A stretch of DNA of 64,000 nucleotides from Candidatus Aminicenantes bacterium (GTDB lineage Bacteria; Acidobacteriota; Aminicenantia; Aminicenantales; Saccharicenantaceae). The stretch's first letter is position 1, and each line of letters starts with the position of its first letter. The notes below the pieces were generated by a model. The model was not told the DNA's origin and made no database searches. It worked only from the letters and a program-made list of their open reading frames with translations. Location of the stretch: NCBI GenBank assembly GCA_026393975.1, contig JAPKZD010000003.1, positions 161,814 through 225,813 of the forward strand, given 5' to 3'. The translations under genes were made by a program, and so were the position numbers. This document shows, in pieces, positions 20,521 through 46,880 of the stretch.

Positions 20521-20593
20521 TGGCTAGGGGCGGAATCGAACCGTCGACGCAAGGATTTTCAGTCCTTCGCTCTACCGACTGAGCTACCTAGCC
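20521..20593 (-). tRNA. tRNA-Phe (anticodon GAA), CCA not encoded
   Basis: The reverse complement folds as a cloverleaf. Acceptor GGCTAGG/CCTAGCC, D-arm GCTC/GAGC, anticodon stem AAGGA/TCCTT with loop CTGAAAA (GAA), T-loop TTCGATT. There is one A.C mismatch in the T-stem. A consensus promoter sits upstream on the minus strand. Confidence 0.85.
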
Positions 20594-20654: not shown

Positions 20655-20766
20655 CATTCCCCGCCCATGAAGAACGGGGATACGGACAGGAGGTCTCTGT
20701 CCCTCCAATGGCCAGAGCCGAAGTGTCGAGCGAGCTCAAGGGCGAACGAGACAACCGCTGAACCCG

Positions 20767-20903
20767 GAGCCGAGGGGTGTCGCCGGAGGGAGCATAAAGC
20801 GGTGATTTAGACTTCCTGCGCCGGATACGCGGACTCCTCCCATCGGATCCGGCGCGGGAAGGCGTTAAAAATCAGCGCAGCGAACGAAGACGACCCCCGA
20901 GGC
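20767..20903 (+). repeat. Structured intergenic repeat, copy A (plus orientation)
   Basis: gAGCCGAGGGGTGTCGCCGGAGGGAGCATAAAGCGGTGATTTAG...GCGCCGGAT[ACGCGGACTCCTCCCATCGG]ATCCGGCGC...GTTAAAAATCAGCGCAGCGAACGAAGACGACCCCCGAGGC. Shares about 85% identity with copies C and D. It is immediately followed by TTGAAA-17-TATTCT. Confidence 0.8.
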
Positions 20904-20907
20904 GAAA

Positions 20908-20936
20908 TTGAAAAGGGGCGGTCGATATGTTATTCT
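20908..20936 (+). promoter_or_regulatory. Putative promoter of the DUF465 gene (TTGAAA-17-TATTCT) abutting repeat copy A
   Basis: TTGAAA at 20908-20913 and TATTCT at 20931-20936. GGAGGA RBS, then ATG 20959. Confidence 0.4.
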
Positions 20937-20958: not shown

Positions 20959-21180
20959 ATGGAAGAAAAGGAACTCAAGGAGCTTCTCCTCAGGGAAAAC
21001 GCCGAATTCCGAAGGGCCCACGGTGACCACCAGGAGTGCGAAAAGGCCCTCGACGCGATCCGCGGCAAGACCCATCTCTCGGCCGCCGAGGTTGACGAGG
21101 AGCGGGAACTCAAGAAAAAGAAGCTCGCCCTCAAGGACCGGATGTACCGGCTCATGTCGGACTACCTCAGGACGCCCTAG
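20959..21180 (+). CDS. DUF465 (YdcH-like) small protein
   Basis: ..LLRENAEFRRAHGDHQECEKALDAIRGK...LSAAEVDEERELKKKKLALKDRMYRLMSDY matches the DUF465 pattern (H-x-x-L-D..I..L... E.LKK.KL.LKDEI). The internal ATG with an RBS is chosen over the ORF-track start at 20908. Confidence 0.6.
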   Translation: MEEKELKELLLRENAEFRRAHGDHQECEKALDAIRGKTHLSAAEVDEERELKKKKLALKDRMYRLMSDYLRTP

Positions 21181-34337: not shown

Positions 34338-35123
34338 GTGAGAAAAACGGCGGGGGAGGGGAGCCGGGGAGGGGGCCTTTGGGCGTCGCGGCCGCCTAGC
34401 CTGTTGTTACCGCTAAGGGTGATCCTTCTTGCCCTGGGACTTGCCGCCGCAGCGGGATCCGTCGGTCTTCAGGACGACGCGACCTTCGCCCGAAGGCGGC
34501 AGGAGATGGTCTCATCCCAGGTCGCGGCCCGGGGTATCCACGACCCGCGGGTCCTAAAGGCCCTGGCCGGCGTCCCCCGACATCTTTTTGTCCTTCCAGC
34601 CGATAGTGACCAGGCCTACGAGGACCATCCCCTGCCGATCGCCGAGGGGCAGACGATCTCCCAGCCCTATATCGTGGCCCTCATGACCGAGTGCCTAGCC
34701 TTGAAAATAAGCGACAAGGTGCTCGAAATAGGGACCGGTTCCGGCTACCAGGCGGCTGTGCTCAGCCTGATCGTCGACCGCGTTTTCACGGTCGAGATTC
34801 ACGACACGCTAGCCCGCCGGGCGGCGGAGACGCTCGAGCGCCTGGGCTTCCGGAACGTCCGGATCCGCTCCGGCGACGGCTTCTTCGGCTGGCCCGAGGA
34901 GGCGCCCTTCGACGGCGTCATCGTCACCTGCGCCGTCCCCGAGGTCCCGCCGGCCCTCTTCGCCCAGCTCGCGGAAGGCGGACGCCTAGTCATCCCCCTC
35001 GGCGAAACCCTCACTTATCAACGCCTGACCGTTATCACCAAGAAGGCCGGAAAACCCAGCGTCCAGCAAGTCCTCGATGTCCGCTTCGTCCCCATGACCG
35101 GCGAAGCGTTAAAGAAAAAATAG
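34338..35123 (+). CDS. pcm: Protein-L-isoaspartate O-methyltransferase with N-terminal signal/TM segment
   Basis: GQTISQPYIVALMTE..LEIGTGSGYQAAVL SAM-MTase motifs. GTG start after AGGAGG. Hydrophobic N-terminal segment LLLPLRVILLALGLAAAAG. Confidence 0.8.
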   Translation: MRKTAGEGSRGGGLWASRPPSLLLPLRVILLALGLAAAAGSVGLQDDATFARRRQEMVSSQVAARGIHDPRVLKALAGVPRHLFVLPADSDQAYEDHPLPIAEGQTISQPYIVALMTECLALKISDKVLEIGTGSGYQAAVLSLIVDRVFTVEIHDTLARRAAETLERLGFRNVRIRSGDGFFGWPEEAPFDGVIVTCAVPEVPPALFAQLAEGGRLVIPLGETLTYQRLTVITKKAGKPSVQQVLDVRFVPMTGEALKKK

Positions 35124-35147
35124 TCCGAGTTTTTTTCTTCCTATTTG

Positions 35148-35262
35148 GGCCGAGGGGCATCGTTGACGGTAGCATAAAGCGGGGATTTAGCCGTCATGGG
35201 ATGGGGCAGGCCCATGACGACGTTAAAAATCCACGCGCGGACGGAGACGATACCCTGAGGCC
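35148..35262 (+). repeat. Structured intergenic repeat, copy B (plus orientation; variant central hairpin)
   Basis: GGCCGAGGGGCATCGTTGACGGTAGCATAAAGCGGGGATTTAGCC-[GTCATGGGatggggcaggCCCATGAC]-GACGTTAAAAATCCACGCGCGGACGGAGACGATACCCTGAGGCC. The ends are conserved with A, C and D; the middle is replaced by a different perfect 8-bp hairpin. Confidence 0.7.
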
Positions 35263-35304
35263 CATACGTTGCTTTTGACCGGCGACTGTGCTACTTTTTA
35301 GGCG

Positions 35305-36708
35305 ATGATGATCCGATTCGGCACCTCCGGCTGGCGGGGGGTCATGGGAGAGGAATTCACCTTCCACAACGTCCGGGTCGTCGTCCAGGCCATCGCCAAC
35401 CACCTCCGGAAAAGGTACGGGGACGGGCCGATCTCCGTGGTCGTCGGCTTCGATACGCGGTTTCTGTCGGAGCGTTACGCCTTCGAAGCGGCCAAACTCC
35501 TGGCCCGGAACCGGATCGAGGTCTTCCTGGCCGAACGGGACGCCCCGTCCCAGGCCCTGGCTTACCAGGTCATCAAGAGGAAATGCCAGGGCGGGATCAA
35601 CTTCACCGCCTCCTTCAACCCGCCGCGCTACAACGGCCTCAAGTTCAACGTCGAAACCGGCGCCCCGGCCCTCCCGGAAGTGACGGACGCCATCGAAGAG
35701 GAGATCCGGCAGCTGATGCCCGGCTTCTCCACCCTGGCCACCCACGCCCCGGGCGAATCCGTCTCCCGCATCGACTTCCAGGCGGACTATCTGGCTTTTC
35801 TCCAGGGCAAGATCGATTTCGGCGTCATGCGGACCGCGAAGCTGCGTGTCGCCGCGGACCTGCTTTATGGCACGAGCCGCGAATACCTCGACGAGATCCT
35901 CGAGGAGAACGGCGTCGAGGTCGAGAGCATCCACGGCTACGTCGACCCCTACTTCGGCGGTGTCAGCCCCTCCTGCACGGAGGAGAACCTGACCGAGCTC
36001 AAGGCCCATGTCCTCGAGACGAAGTGCCACCTCGGGGTGGCCACGGACGCGGATGGTGACCGGTTCGGCATCGTCGATGAAAAGGGGGCCTTCGTCCATC
36101 CGAACATCATCTTGGCCCTGCTTCTCAACTACCTCGCCAGGGTCAAGGGCTGGCGCGGTGGCGTCGCCCGGTCTGTCACCACGACCCATCTCATCGACCG
36201 CATCGCCCGCAAGCACGACCTGCCGCTGACCAAGACGAAGGTCGGCTTCAAATACATGGCCGACCTGTTCCTCAAGGGCCGGATCATGTTTGGCGGGGAG
36301 GAGAGCGCCTGCATCGCCGTCAAGGACCACCTCCCCGAAAAAGACGGGATCTTTGCCGGGCTCTTGGTCGCAGAGATGATCGCCGCCACCGGCCGTAGCC
36401 TGGGCGGGCTTCGCGAGGCCCTTTTCAAGGAATACGGAGAAATGGTTAGCGGTGAGCGCAACCTGCCCCTGACCCCGGAGCGGGCAAAGAGGCTGAAGGC
36501 GCTCATCCAGGATCCTCCGTCGAAGCTGGGCCGCCGGAAGGTCGTCTCCGTCGAGACGATCGACGGCCTCAAGCTCGATTTCGACGAGGACCGCTGGATC
36601 GTCCTCCGCCTGTCCGGGACCCAGCCGCTCATCCGCTGCTACGCCGAAGCCGAGACGCGCGAGGAGGTCGAGGCCCTCTTGAAAAAGGGGCTGGAGGCGG
36701 TCAGGTGA
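35305..36708 (+). CDS. Phosphoglucomutase/phosphomannomutase (alpha-D-phosphohexomutase) family protein
   Basis: 467 aa. FGTSGWRG N-terminus. The active-site loop reads TASFNPPRYNGLKF, where the canonical motif is [ST]ASHNPP.YNG.K. A metal-binding DADGDR loop is present. Confidence 0.85.
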   Translation: MMIRFGTSGWRGVMGEEFTFHNVRVVVQAIANHLRKRYGDGPISVVVGFDTRFLSERYAFEAAKLLARNRIEVFLAERDAPSQALAYQVIKRKCQGGINFTASFNPPRYNGLKFNVETGAPALPEVTDAIEEEIRQLMPGFSTLATHAPGESVSRIDFQADYLAFLQGKIDFGVMRTAKLRVAADLLYGTSREYLDEILEENGVEVESIHGYVDPYFGGVSPSCTEENLTELKAHVLETKCHLGVATDADGDRFGIVDEKGAFVHPNIILALLLNYLARVKGWRGGVARSVTTTHLIDRIARKHDLPLTKTKVGFKYMADLFLKGRIMFGGEESACIAVKDHLPEKDGIFAGLLVAEMIAATGRSLGGLREALFKEYGEMVSGERNLPLTPERAKRLKALIQDPPSKLGRRKVVSVETIDGLKLDFDEDRWIVLRLSGTQPLIRCYAEAETREEVEALLKKGLEAVR

Positions 36709-41827: not shown

Positions 41828-42136
41828 ATGTCTTTTCAAAAGCTTTATGTCGGTAACCTCAATTACAAGACCACGGAAGAGACGCTGAAGGAGCTGTTCG
41901 CGCAGTTCGGCGAGGTTACCTCGGTCAACATCCTGCAGGGCCGCGGCTTCGGCTTCGTCGAGATGGCCACGCCGGAAGCGGCGCAGGATGCCAAGGGCAA
42001 GCTGAACAGTACCGAGTTCGACGGCCGCAAGCTCATCGTCAACGATGCCCGCCCGCAGGCCGAAAGACCCCGGACCGATCGCGATCGGCGCCCGGGCGGA
42101 CCCGAGGGCGATAGACGAGGATTCTCCAAGTTCTGA
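41828..42136 (+). CDS. RRM-type RNA-binding protein (RNP-1/RNP-2) with Arg/Gly/Asp-rich tail
   Basis: KLYVGNLNY (RNP-2) and RGFGFVEM (RNP-1). 102 aa. Confidence 0.85.
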   Translation: MSFQKLYVGNLNYKTTEETLKELFAQFGEVTSVNILQGRGFGFVEMATPEAAQDAKGKLNSTEFDGRKLIVNDARPQAERPRTDRDRRPGGPEGDRRGFSKF

Positions 42137-42162
42137 CCCCTGAGGACCCGCCCCCGCAGCGG

Positions 42163-42299
42163 GGCCTCGGGGATCGTCTCCGTCCGCTGCGGTGATTCTT
42201 AACGCTATCCCGGGCCGGATTCGATGGGGGGAGTCCGCGTATCCGGCCCGAGCTAGCTAAATCACCGCTTTATGCTCCCTCCGACGATTCCCCTCGGCC
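42163..42299 (-). repeat. Structured intergenic repeat, copy C (minus orientation), in the 3' region of the RRM-protein gene
   Basis: The reverse complement aligns with copies A and D: GGCCGAGGGGAATCGTCGGAGGGAGCATAAAGCGGTGATTTAGC..GGGCCGGAT[ACGCGGACTCCCCCATCGA]ATCCGGCCC..GCGTTAAGAATCACCGCAGCGGACGGAGACGATCCCCGAGGCC. Confidence 0.8.
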
Positions 42300-42327
42300 C
42301 CGATTTCTGCGGTGTCGGGCTATTAGA

Positions 42328-42362
42328 GGGGACATGCCTTCCCAGTACGTGTCCCCCTTTTT
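42328..42362 (+). terminator. Rho-independent terminator downstream of the RRM-protein gene and repeat C
   Basis: GGGGACA-(15-nt loop)-TGTCCCC followed by TTTTT. Confidence 0.55.
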
Positions 42363-42681
42363 CATCTCCCCTCTGCGTCAAAAGGCACTCCATTCCATTG
42401 GCTGCAATGCTTTCTGTGTCGCAAGACGCCACCCGGGCTGAGACAGGGACCGTCCAGAGCCCCCGTAGCGGAGGGGGACCCATCGGCTTGCCGATGGGGG
42501 AACCGCCGGGACTGGTTCCCAGGGGGGCCGGGGGATATGGATGGTCCCTGTTTCAGCCTAAAAGGGTGGCGCCAGCGATTCTTGCCTGTTCCTGGGGTGA
42601 ACCTTTGGTCATCTCGCTTCGTTGTACCCAGTGAAGTCCCAGGAGAGGAGTTTAGAAGTGTCGGACCGGCTGAGTGTTCCC

Positions 42682-42787: not shown

Positions 42788-43354
42788 ATGGCCGAGCCGA
42801 CCGAGATCGCCTCTCTCTTGGAGCGGATCCAGGACGGAGACCGGGAAGCTTTCATGACGATCATCCGGCTCTACCAGCAGAAAGTGTTCGTTATGGCCTA
42901 CTCCATTCTCCGCAACCGCGAAGACGCGCTCGACGCCGTCCAGGAAACGTTCCTCAGGCTCTATCAGAAGGCCGGCCTCTACAAGCCCGGCAATTCGTTC
43001 CAAGGCTGGCTCCTCCAGATGGCCAAGAACATCAGCATCGACAGCTACCGGAAACACCAACGGAAGCGGCGGGAATGGGAGACTTCGAAGCCGCTCGAGG
43101 AAATCCCCATCGCGGTCGAGGACAGGGCCTCGGACTCGGCCGCGTCGGACCTTCGGAGCACTTTTGCGCGGTCCGTCGACAAGCTGGCCAAGAGGCAGAA
43201 GATGGTCTTCGTCATGAGGCACTACAACGAGCTTCAATTCAACGAGATCTCCGAAGCCATGCGGATCTCGGTCGGGACGGCCAAGTCGCTCCATTTCAAG
43301 GCCGTCCAGAATCTCAGGAAGTGGCTGACACCGGATTTGGGGATGCAACGATGA
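42788..43354 (+). CDS. ECF-subfamily RNA polymerase sigma factor
   Basis: sigma70 region 2 (..RLYQQKVFVMAYSILRNREDALDAVQETFLRLY..) and region 4 (..LQFNEISEAMRISVGTAKS..). Confidence 0.85.
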   Translation: MAEPTEIASLLERIQDGDREAFMTIIRLYQQKVFVMAYSILRNREDALDAVQETFLRLYQKAGLYKPGNSFQGWLLQMAKNISIDSYRKHQRKRREWETSKPLEEIPIAVEDRASDSAASDLRSTFARSVDKLAKRQKMVFVMRHYNELQFNEISEAMRISVGTAKSLHFKAVQNLRKWLTPDLGMQR

Positions 43355-45020: not shown

Positions 45021-45404
45021 ATGAAAAAAATAGCGCTCGTCATCTTAGGTGTCTTCTGTCTGGGAATTCTTGCCGCCCCGGCCGCCGCGGCCAACCACAA
45101 CGACTTCAAGGTCATTCAAAAAGCCGTCAAGCAGAACCCGGCCTACGAGGAGGGCAAGGAAGTCAAGTGGTTCAAGGTCCTCATCACGGACGGCAAGACG
45201 AATGACGCCAAGGTCAAGGTGACCCTGCCCATCGCGCTCGTGGAGGTCCTCATCAACTGCACCGACAGCCGGCACTTCAAAATCGACGACGGGGACTGCG
45301 ACATCGACCTCAAGGCCGTCTGGGCCGCGCTGAAGCAGGCCGGTCCCATGGCCCTCATCGAAATCCGCGACGACGGCGCCCTCATCAAGGTCTGGCTGGA
45401 ATAA
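45021..45404 (+). CDS. Small secreted protein; paralog of the C-terminal domain of the preceding gene (ends DDGALIKVWLE)
   Basis: 127 aa. Signal peptide (LGILAAPAAA). Shares ..K(I/V)-I..G...(I/L)P-AL..L....D(L/I).K(I/A)V..L...L..I.DDG..I..W.E with 44150..44998. GAGGAG RBS. Confidence 0.6.
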   Translation: MKKIALVILGVFCLGILAAPAAAANHNDFKVIQKAVKQNPAYEEGKEVKWFKVLITDGKTNDAKVKVTLPIALVEVLINCTDSRHFKIDDGDCDIDLKAVWAALKQAGPMALIEIRDDGALIKVWLE

Positions 45405-45436
45405 GAGAGAAAAACTCTTCTTTCCACTAATTATAG

Positions 45437-45574
45437 GGCCGAGGGGTGTCGTCGGCGGAAGCATAAAGCGGTGATTTAGCCTGCCCGGGACGGAGACGCG
45501 GACTCCTCCCATCGACTTCGGACCGGGAAGGCGTTAAGAATCACCGCAGCGGACGGGGACGATATCCCGAGGCC
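45437..45574 (+). repeat. Structured intergenic repeat, copy D (plus orientation), abutting the leuC promoter
   Basis: GGCCGAGGGGTGTCGTCGGCGGAAGCATAAAGCGGTGATTTAGCCTGCCCGGGACGGAGACGCGGACTCCTCCCATCGACTTCGGACCGGGAAGGCGTTAAGAATCACCGCAGCGGACGGGGACGATATCCCGAGGCC. Confidence 0.8.
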
Positions 45575-45577
45575 ACG

Positions 45578-45606
45578 TTGACAAGGCCTCCGGGCCCCCA
45601 TAAAAT
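45578..45606 (+). promoter_or_regulatory. Putative sigma70 promoter of leuCDB (TTGACA-17-TAAAAT)
   Basis: Consensus -35 at 45578-45583, a 17-nt spacer (aggcctccgggccccca, self-complementary), -10 at 45601-45606. AGGAGG RBS, then TTG start at 45627. Confidence 0.5.
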
Positions 45607-45626
45607 GGGGGAGCCAGGAGGTATAT

Positions 45627-46880
45627 TTGGGCAAAACGCTGACGGAGAAGGTCCTCGGCCGCAAGGCGGGGAAGGACGTCCAAGCCGGAGAAGTCATCAC
45701 GATTTCCCCGGACGTCATCCTCTCCCACGATAATTCGGCGGCCATCATCCAGGAGTTCCGCAAGCTCGGCGTCAAGAAGGTCAGGGCGCCCGAGAAGATC
45801 GTTATCGTCCTCGACCACATCGTCCCCGCCTCCGACGAAAAGTACGCCCAGAACCACAAGTCCATTCGTGAGTTCGTCGCCGAGCAGGGGATCCCCAATT
45901 TCTTCGACATCAACGCCGGCATCTGTCACCAGGTCCTGCCCGAACAGGGATTCGCCCTTCCCGGCAAGGTCATCGTTGGCAGCGACTCCCACACGCCGAG
46001 CTATGGCGCGCTCGGGGCCTTCGCCACCGGCATCGGCCGGACCGAGACCGCCTGCACGTGGGCCACGGACGAGATCTGGCTCCGGGTGCCGGAAACCATG
46101 CGCATCGACCTCTCGGGTCGTTTCCGGGCCGGAGTATTCGCCAAGGACCTCAGCCTGAAGCTCATCGGGGACCACGGCGCCGAGATGGCCAACTACAGGG
46201 CCGTCGAGTTCGCCGGGCCCGCGGCCGGCGATTTCAGCGTCGGGGCCCGGCTGACCCTGGCCAACATGTCCGCCGAGATGGGCGCCAAGAACGGCTATTT
46301 TGCCCCGGACGCGAAGACCCTGAAATGGCTCGAAGGCCGGGCCCGAGGGCCTTTCGTCGTCGCCTCGTCGGACCCGGACGCCCGCTTCGAATCCATCCTC
46401 GCCTACGACCTCGATGCGCTCGAGCCCCAGGTCGCCTGCCCGCACACGGTCGACAACGTCAAGCCCATCGGGGCCGTCGCCGGCAAGCCCGTCAACCAGG
46501 TCCTCATCGGTACGTGCACCAACGGGCGCCTCGAAGACCTCGAGGCCGCCGCGGCTATTTTCAAGGGCCGCAAGGTCCATTCGGGCGTGCGCTGCCTCGT
46601 CATTCCCGCCTCGTGGGAAGTCTACCGGGAGGCGCTCAAAAGCGGCGCCCTCGCCATTCTGGCCGATGCCGGATGCGTCATCCTCAACTCGGGCTGCGGG
46701 CCGTGCCTCGGCGCCCACGAGGGCATCATGGCCGCGGGCGAGATCTGCCTCAGCACGTCGAACCGCAACTTCCGGGGCCGCATGGGCCACCGCGATTCGG
46801 AGATCTACCTGGCCTCGCCGGCTACGGCCGCGGCCACCGCTGTCGCGGGCAAGATCGCCGACCCGAGGGAATTCGCATGA
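45627..46880 (+). CDS. leuC: 3-isopropylmalate dehydratase large subunit (short, LeuC type-2 / aconitase family)
   Basis: 417 aa. Aconitase-family Cys ligands ([17 protein letters not shown]). TTG start. Confidence 0.9.

Follow-up and report, generated by a model that had tools for sequence, protein, structure and literature searches.

A long palindromic intergenic repeat with a strand-specific, covarying fold in Aminicenantes genomes

ERIC elements are long imperfect palindromes of 127 bp that occur in Enterobacteria and Vibrio and have been reported inside transcribed regions. They are intergenic elements of a broad clade, lie in either orientation, come in size variants produced by indels at fixed points and show compensatory pairing; to our knowledge, no transposase is known for them. 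Here we describe a repeat from Aminicenantes, abundant uncultured bacteria of sediments and the subsurface. We analysed a 64,000-nucleotide (nt) stretch of a Candidatus Aminicenantes assembly (GCA_026393975.1, contig JAPKZD010000003.1, positions 161,814 to 225,813 of the forward strand), called the window below, which carries four copies of the repeat, A to D. An earlier note, made from the sequence of the window alone, had flagged the central hairpin of these copies and proposed that its compensatory base changes argue for selection on secondary structure. We found that this hairpin is the mere tip of an element of 140–230 nt. On balance, this element probably represents a previously undescribed, Aminicenantes-specific family of long palindromic intergenic repeats, of the general kind to which ERIC, Correia, REP and MITE elements belong.

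The four window copies share a 20-nt core motif, AGCATAAAGCGGNGATTTAG, for which shuffles of the 64 kb gave an expectation of zero. We scanned a species-representative genome collection with this core, which is therefore invariant by construction among the copies recovered. The scan yielded more than 108 stretches from at least 23 Aminicenantes assemblies, some of which are labelled Acidobacteria or 'uncultured Eubacteriales'. The sole match outside Aminicenantes was a chance match in a metagenome-assembled genome (MAG) of Moellerella. The family is a marker of the phylum that allows Aminicenantes contigs to be recognised. One MAG contributed at least 24 loci, and others at least 14 and at least 13; extrapolating from the 24 loci and from four copies in 64 kb, a genome very likely holds a hundred copies or more. 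When the whole window was searched against Rfam at the gathering threshold, tRNA was the only match and no family covered the element. Permissive Rfam scans of copy A, of both long variants and of a neighbouring repeat returned just chance matches to microRNA models, and we found no relevant literature on Aminicenantes repeats, RNA motifs or non-coding elements.

A covarying fold carried by one strand

Each unit forms a single imperfect hairpin with a 140-nt core made up of stems P1 to P7 (47 bp). Going inward, the outer stem P0 is followed by P1, a tandem G.A step, P2–P3, a symmetric purine loop (GGAGGGA opposite GGACGGA), a P4 of 2 bp, an AUAAA bulge, a P5 of 10 bp and the apical arm P6–P7, which holds the flagged hairpin. 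Every window copy was predicted to fold into one long rod of 117–143 nt, with energies between –55 and –78 kcal/mol and z-scores, relative to dinucleotide shuffles, between –4.0 and –6.1. P0 is the most variable part, with up to six standard pair types at one position. The outer stems covary rather than stay conserved, and copies A, B and D have no outer stem.

A structure of 56 pairs was written onto a MAFFT alignment of 96 distinct copies that had not been fitted to structure (alignment A2), and a covariance model (R1) was used to re-align 97 copies (alignment A6). In A6, 90.6% of the cells were paired, and 40 of the 56 pairs had changed on both sides, in 399 cells; none of 500 shuffles reached as high. 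Control versions with shifted partner columns were just 32–49% paired. The results with A2 were similar, with 86.7% of cells paired, double changes at 38 of the 56 pairs, again no shuffle of 500 as high, and 36–45% pairing in the shifted-column versions. The two-sided changes at 40 pairs, unmatched by any shuffle, bear out the proposed selection on secondary structure. This fold of 40 covarying pairs is new and very well supported, and would make a new covariance-model family.

The flagged hairpin of copy A consists of GCGCCGGAT (20818–20826), the C-rich loop ACGCGGACTCCTCCCATCGG (20827–20846) and ATCCGGCGC (20847–20855) on the plus strand, its arms occupying the covarying columns 84–92 and 115–123 of A6. 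Its counterpart on the minus strand in copy C pairs GGGCCGGAT (42249–42241) with ATCCGGCCC (42220–42212), that of copy D pairs CCCGG (45484–45488) with CCGGG (45523–45527), and copy B has the arms GTCATGGG (35193–35200) and CCCATGAC (35211–35218) around 10 nt. These positions lie within 2 nt of those first reported. The compensatory change noticed between copies A and C was also confirmed, the second stem position being C-G in A and G-C in C. Across A6, the pair singled out in this way is G-C in 86 copies and C-G in 5, the closing pair of the stem is U-A in 60 and G-C in 31, and a pair inside what had been taken for the loop is C-G in 87 and U-A in 4. Two middle stem positions form a G.A/A.G mismatch in ~65 copies and G-C/C-G pairs in ~26, A and C among the latter.

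The apical arm comes in several versions. The suggestion of a scaffold with exchangeable hairpins fits the family well, as no fewer than six short apical types, and two large ones besides, sit on the same basal scaffold. The C-rich apex ACGCGGACTCCTCCCATCG is found in ~45 of the 96 aligned copies. The loop that had been described as nearly invariant is so in the main subfamily; other subfamilies carry GGAGTCTTTAACTC, GGCCCATTCCCAC, GTTCACC or other loops, and further short apexes are CCCCA(T/C), CGAATACATTCCCATGGATAAG and the short form seen in copy B. The hairpin of copy B had been called unrelated to the others, but its 5' arm GCCGTCATGGGCCGGA is identical to that of full-size copies such as those at loci L104 and L047. 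Judged by this match, copy B is a shortened derivative of the full-size form; the same short form is present in L004, L076, L093, L095 and L107. The two large apical domains measure 70–110 nt and have predicted sub-hairpins of their own (one in L077, L078 and L099, the other in L002, L015, L060, L018 and L004). Many copies also carry one or two extra covarying outer layers, for example GGGGTATTCCC ... GGGAATACCCC, which bring the unit to ~230 nt. At seven or more loci (L002, L006, L015, L019, L024, L060 and L078) a standard copy and a long-apex variant form a head-to-head doublet with the 5' ends facing, 36–190 nt apart; such doublets are REPIN-like but made of two different variants.

The fold belongs to one strand. 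R1 scored 120–204 bits on the forward strand of the element and 20–40 bits for the mirror-image matches on the other strand, and in the window copies the forward strand folds more stably than the reverse. Paired cells contained 296 G.U against 109 A.C, and those of the inner helices 175 against 18. Because of this G.U excess and the one-strand scores, a symmetric cruciform is unlikely, and conversion from one arm to the other would not produce such an asymmetry either. Of the two levels at which selection had been envisaged, RNA or a DNA cruciform, the second is thus disfavoured in its symmetric form, and the conserved feature is the fold of a single strand, as RNA or as single-stranded DNA.

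A strand-specific fold rich in G.U could be that of a functional structured RNA family, made from the forward strand and maintained by the host, whose scaffold would bind a protein and whose variable apical loop, often C-rich and UCCCA-like, would give specificity, for example by pairing in trans with Shine-Dalgarno sequences or G-rich regions. In A6, 66 of the 97 copies have U.G at one particular pair; this pair, the tandem G.A steps and the purine-rich loops are typical of RNA. The loops are conserved phylum-wide and the stems covary, compensatory changes occur among same-site copies in related genomes that are 88–94% identical, and position is held across MAGs, all of which favour this explanation. 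Weighing on the other side are the estimate, by extrapolation, of a hundred or more copies per genome, which is unusual for an RNA gene, the lack of the C-rich tract in several subfamilies, and the placement of the copies described below. We entertain such an RNA, including one with an apical loop that pairs in trans, only as a tentative possibility.

The more specific idea that the C-rich loop acts as an anti-Shine-Dalgarno sequence found no support. The tract is missing from several whole subfamilies. CCUCC is present in the loops of copies A and D and in the main subfamily only, and a U/C polymorphism (CUCCUCCC versus CUCCCCCC, the latter in five copies including copy C) destroys the exact CCUCC; the CUCCCCCC form would mispair with GGAGG. 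In addition, copies A and D lie ahead of the best promoter of the downstream gene, whose mRNA therefore does not include the loop. We also considered whether the C-rich loop pairs with the internal loop GGAGGGA or with the 5' flank GAGGAGG, and found no support for it; the sequences are complementary, but loop type and partner type show no co-change beyond subfamily membership.

Placement beside promoters and turnover at orthologous sites

Genes were called with a purpose-made codon-usage gene caller, and only two copies overlapped a called gene. For the 80 copies with both neighbours called, the neighbours were divergent in 32 cases, tandem in 46 (21 sense and 25 antisense to the element) and convergent in 2. 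Sigma-70-like sites within 150 nt pointed away from the element in 49 cases and into it in 8. A same-strand promoter-like site within 150 nt upstream was found for 3 of 91 copies, and just three such sites lay inside copies. Most copies sit in the spacer upstream of promoters, outside recognisable transcription units. The rarity of upstream same-strand promoters, the 49 sites that point away and the random orientation relative to neighbouring genes all count against the transcribed RNA considered above, as do the absence of the element from most leuC loci and the unchanged promoter there.

Several other roles were rejected. The element does not carry the promoter itself, since empty leuC sites keep the same promoter and only the three internal sites were seen. 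A promoter in front of the element was rejected on the 3 of 91 count, and the placement counts contradict both a 5' untranslated region (UTR) leader and a 3' UTR terminator or stabiliser. A riboswitch or leader with a shared neighbour gene was likewise discarded, as clustering of 627 flanking proteins returned housekeeping orthologues only (mnmE, ileS, eno, ECF sigma and others).

The promoter-like sites next to window copies A, B and D lie directly past the element on the plus strand. Past copy A is TTGAAA-17-TATTCT, with TG before the second hexamer (20908–20936), and past copy D is TTGACA-17-TAAAAT (45578–45606); in both, the –35 hexamer begins 3–5 nt beyond the element. We regard the first of these sites as context and not as part of the repeat. 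The site directly past copy B, TTGCTT-17-TACTTT (35269–35297), is weaker; it was read from the sequence and falls under the threshold of the scanner, and it is kept past the orthologous full-size copy in L080. The TACTTT –10-like hexamer lies 7 nt before the ATG of the PGM/PMM gene (35305), which has no Shine-Dalgarno sequence, and L080 has the same layout; the spacing suggests that the PGM/PMM mRNA is leaderless.

For the leuC comparison, the aconitase-family gene past copy D led to 80 orthologous metagenome loci with 69–96% protein identity. Upstream regions were read in ~26 of the 80, and the promoter CGTTGACAAGGCC...CATAAAATGGGG was kept in all of them, with or without the element. A model search located the element at ~9 of the 80 loci. 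Three copies were on the plus strand as in the window and four on the minus strand, the latter including loci whose LeuC is 94–96% identical to that of the window; of the remaining copies, one was split by another repeat and one was reduced to a palindrome of the 3' arm. In L109 and L118 the element is inverted and ~100 nt from the leuC promoter. Short empty sites were found in L123, L128 and L131, and two loci have GGGGCCGAGG|TCCCACG, a junction that would be a deletion scar between copies of a CCGAGG direct repeat found in both arms. Presence and absence also alternate at the 3' end of eno, where the site is filled in L001, L030 and L079 and empty in L031.

Closer relatives showed replacement as well as gain and loss. 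The window is syntenic with two MAGs at 88–94% nucleotide identity. At the site of copy B, the 94%-identical genome (L080) has a full-size C-rich variant and 220 nt of other repeats before the same promoter. Synteny past copy D is lost in the closest genome, so that no empty site is available there. Such turnover makes the intergenic regions very variable between genomes that are 90–94% identical.

The same observations bear on a DNA explanation, in which the element would be an architectural or regulatory site upstream of promoters and a nucleoid-associated or regulatory protein, bound to the hairpin or to the duplex, would insulate or tune them, much like IHF and gyrase at Correia elements and BIMEs. 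Such a site would account for the enrichment beside gene starts (32 divergent versus 2 convergent), for the –35 hexamers next to copies A and D, for promoters that face outward on both sides and for the different variants that the window and L080 have at the same place in front of one promoter. However, most orthologues have the conserved leuC promoter without the element, both orientations and variable distances occur (as in L109 and L118), and the neighbouring genes have no common function. A duplex or cruciform would also not give the asymmetry of G.T over A.C. We consider this explanation rather improbable.

We favour a repeat that behaves as if dispensable, spreading and being lost within these genomes, and from the patterns above we infer how this might work. 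Some factor acting in trans would recognise the top strand in its folded form by way of the conserved loops; it could be a host protein, or else a transposase or recombinase that works on single-stranded DNA. The stems would then drift only where pairing is restored, which would leave the compensatory changes. The copies themselves come and go, are turned around, give way to other variants and take up other small elements, and they survive almost only in untranscribed spacer upstream of promoters.

A number of findings weigh against this explanation. No target-site duplication was seen in the filled and empty pairs at eno or leuC (L123), a weak negative because the boundaries are fuzzy, nor was any fixed terminal repeat; unlike ends bound by a transposase, the outer stems are not conserved but covary. 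Among the flanking proteins, no transposase or RAYT-like gene recurred beside the copies. Orientation was unbiased relative to the local coding strand (49:49) and to GC skew (47:51), although mobilisation of the IS200/IS605 type would predict a bias. Copies also occupy the same position in several MAGs: the jag-mnmE spacer in seven, the region 5' of ileS in four, the region 5' of an amidase-like gene in four and the 3' end of eno in three. Such shared positions across distantly related MAGs indicate long residence and not recent movement. Finally, the 3' internal loop AGCGRACGGA, which lies outside the search pattern, is 92% conserved phylum-wide, and 21 same-position comparisons gave 68 two-sided pair changes against ~12 expected at ~10% per-site divergence, 48 of them still paired in both copies. 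The compensatory excess at the same sites, together with the conserved loop, fits a host-level function better than selfish DNA.

In a different account, the element is not selfish DNA but a phylum-wide structured scaffold, most likely RNA, that the host maintains; an Aminicenantes-specific protein would read the purine loops, and the apical module would give each copy its specificity. We judge this unlikely. If true, it would be a natural system of scaffold plus cartridge next to promoters, in a hundred or more copies per genome by extrapolation. A host-functional RNA and a promoter-upstream DNA site are, moreover, not mutually exclusive with selfish spread.

The same-position comparisons also show how tightly pairing is held. 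Besides the two-sided changes, 77 single changes leave one copy unpaired, and the stems diverge by 10.7% and the loops by 9.4%. Compared with its positional orthologues L003 and L062, copy C differs by C-G to U-A in P3 and in the flagged stem and by two double changes in P6a. Pairing is thus under a genuine constraint, though a moderate one, and gene conversion among paralogous copies may also play a part.

Could such copying alone, and not selection, explain the matched arms? Gene conversion between paralogous copies, or between the arms of a palindrome, would move matched arms together. The whole apical module of copy C is replaced by the family consensus in L062, the orthologue of copy B is a different variant, and stems diverge as fast as loops, all as expected of conversion. 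Conversion between arms would, however, lead to perfect Watson-Crick symmetry, and not to asymmetric conserved loops or a G.U excess. The changes are scattered, and some involve arms that 130 nt separate, for instance the replacement of C-G by U-A in P3 between same-site copies; each of the up to six pair types of the outer stem would have needed an original compensation. We find copying without selection very improbable as the source of the covariation, and return to the palindromic intergenic repeat as our preferred explanation.

The window copies and other repeats around them

The core of copy A runs from GGAGCCGAGGGG to CCCCGAGGCG on the plus strand (20766–20905; covariance-model match 20769–20903, 152 bits; –67 kcal/mol, z –4.0), between a tRNA gene on the minus strand (20521–20593) and a small open reading frame starting at 20960. 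It is preceded by a 5' extension (20737–20765, plus strand), which would repeat part of the 3' arm of the element itself in direct orientation (GGGCGAACGAGACAAC) and then continue with a linker, CGCTGAACCC; the same layout is seen in L001, L030, L004, L018 and L082. Copy B, with the short apex and no outer stem, is also on the plus strand (35147–35262; match 35125–35290, 100.5 bits; –54.7 kcal/mol, z –4.7). By Pfam, it is flanked by a PCMT gene ending at 35123 and the PGM/PMM gene starting at 35305. On the minus strand is copy C (42154–42312; match 42135–42324, 189 bits; –78.4 kcal/mol, z –6.1), which is a full copy and has CCGCAG/CTGCGG as its outer stem; ~20 nt separate its 3' end from the stop codon of the gene for an RRM protein (41828–42136, plus strand). 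Copy D is on the plus strand (45436–45575; match 45410–45602, 157.6 bits; –77.4 kcal/mol, z –6.1), between a hypothetical gene ending at 45404 and the aconitase-family LeuC/HacA gene (Pfam) starting at 45627.

The promoter and 5' UTR of this leuC-like gene (CGTTGACAAGGCCTCCGGGCCCCCATAAAATGGGGRGGCCAGGAGGT, window 45565–45630) are kept nearly base for base in L109–L188, where the proteins are 85–96% identical. An inverted repeat, GGCCTCC...GGGGAGGCC, spans the –10 hexamer in this stretch, which may therefore be an operator or attenuator.

Copy C shares a non-coding stretch of 650 nt with a second long-hairpin repeat, which we call X (GCCACCC...GGGTGGC). The stretch separates the RRM-domain RNA-binding gene from an ECF sigma gene (42788–43354, plus strand) that our gene caller had overlooked, and the element is found 5' of ECF sigma genes in several other MAGs as well. 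Repeat X, likewise on the minus strand, is unrelated to the element and immediately 5' of copy C (42395–42570; –92.5 kcal/mol, z –5.9). Its motif CCTCCGCTACGGGG is present at seven other loci, mostly adjoining the main element, and has no Rfam match. A short GC-clamped hairpin repeat, GGGGACACGTAC-loop-GTACRTGTCCCC, lies close by (42336–42365, minus strand). It is intergenic in many Aminicenantes loci, often beside the main element (L012, L045, L055, L071, L097, L111, L113 and L116). Another repeat family, AAGATATTTMCCAGAAGTGCGGCTCCGAG..CTCCGCCGCACTTCTG.TGGTCGCTTC..AGA.TCCGCTCCCTGCCGC, shares these intergenic hot spots, in front of leuC as well as at other places (L111, L114, L120, L127, L133, L139, L059, L076 and L079), and has split the main element in L120 and L059.

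Two kinds of insertion were seen within copies. A hairpin-rich insert of 107 nt, (T)AAACCCATTCGACTCCCCGGCCTTAAGCCCGGGG...GCAGCGAACGT, sits at the same point of the P5 3' arm (AAGAAT|ATCACCGC) in four MAGs (L074:2002–2296, L063:5723–6011, L031:2587–2886 and L033:1–200), and an AT dinucleotide may have been duplicated where the two join; the insert looks like a small element with the Aminicenantes repeat as its target. In L094, an IS110-family transposase gene (PF01548 and PF02371; 1–885, minus strand) is inserted in a copy right past GATTTAG. Two further contig ends of that MAG have the same copy without the interruption, so this insertion looks like a population polymorphism. MAG contigs end within a copy in L062, L080, L094, L006, L073, L053, L088 and L103, which suggests that the repeat breaks short-read assemblies of Aminicenantes genomes.

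Comparison with known repeat families and RNA motifs

We considered integron attC sites and rejected them, as the copies are dispersed among housekeeping genes (the clpB region, PGM and leuC), form no arrays and have no paired R boxes at their ends; the placement counts contradict such sites as well. The Rfam motifs Acido-1, Chloroflexi-1 and Poribacteria-1 are closer in character, being clade-restricted, multi-copy, supported by covariation and without an assigned function. Unlike them, the element is matched by no Rfam model, and a modular apex, nested outer stems and gain and loss are not known to have been reported for motifs of this type.

REP, BIME and REPIN elements resemble the repeat in being palindromic and extragenic, in the strand-specific hairpin, in the occurrence of some inverted doublets and in being a target of the IS110 family. 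REPs are, however, short palindromes of 20–40 nt with a conserved 5' tetranucleotide, mostly at gene 3' ends, and come with a flanked RAYT gene. Our element is 5–8 times longer, with its 140-nt core of 47 bp, and lies next to promoters instead of at 3' ends (convergent 2 of 80, divergent 32 of 80); no RAYT was seen in the 188 loci, which cover 8-kb pieces per genome. The comparison with MITEs is divided. Presence/absence polymorphism at orthologous sites is found at leuC and eno, but conserved terminal inverted repeats are not; the whole unit is palindromic, but its outermost stems covary. No parent autonomous element with the same ends was found among the 188 fetched loci. As neither conserved termini nor a target duplication nor a RAYT gene was found, and as size and placement do not match, we assign the repeat to this general kind of element and not to any named family.

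With Correia elements (CREE) of Neisseria, the repeat shares a copy number that is very likely a hundred or more (by extrapolation), a position near gene starts, long and short forms that differ by an internal module, a single-strand hairpin and an interaction with promoters. Correia elements differ in their 26-bp terminal inverted repeats, TA target duplication, own promoters and IHF site. Our element has covarying outer stems and was found with no duplication; its neighbouring promoter is kept in empty sites and is thus a property of the host site.

Like ERIC, the repeat is a long imperfect intergenic palindrome that lies in either orientation, has size variants and compensated pairing and is associated with no known transposase. 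It differs in its length (140–230 nt), in its restriction to Aminicenantes and in lying mostly upstream of promoters and almost never between convergent genes, and no sequence similarity to the ERIC core was visible by eye. The combination of a strand-specific fold with random orientation, adjoining promoters but without transcription from them, is a mismatch that sets the element apart from REP, ERIC and riboswitch-like elements alike. Identifying what reads its top strand could reveal a new mechanism of mobilisation or a new class of RNA-protein system.

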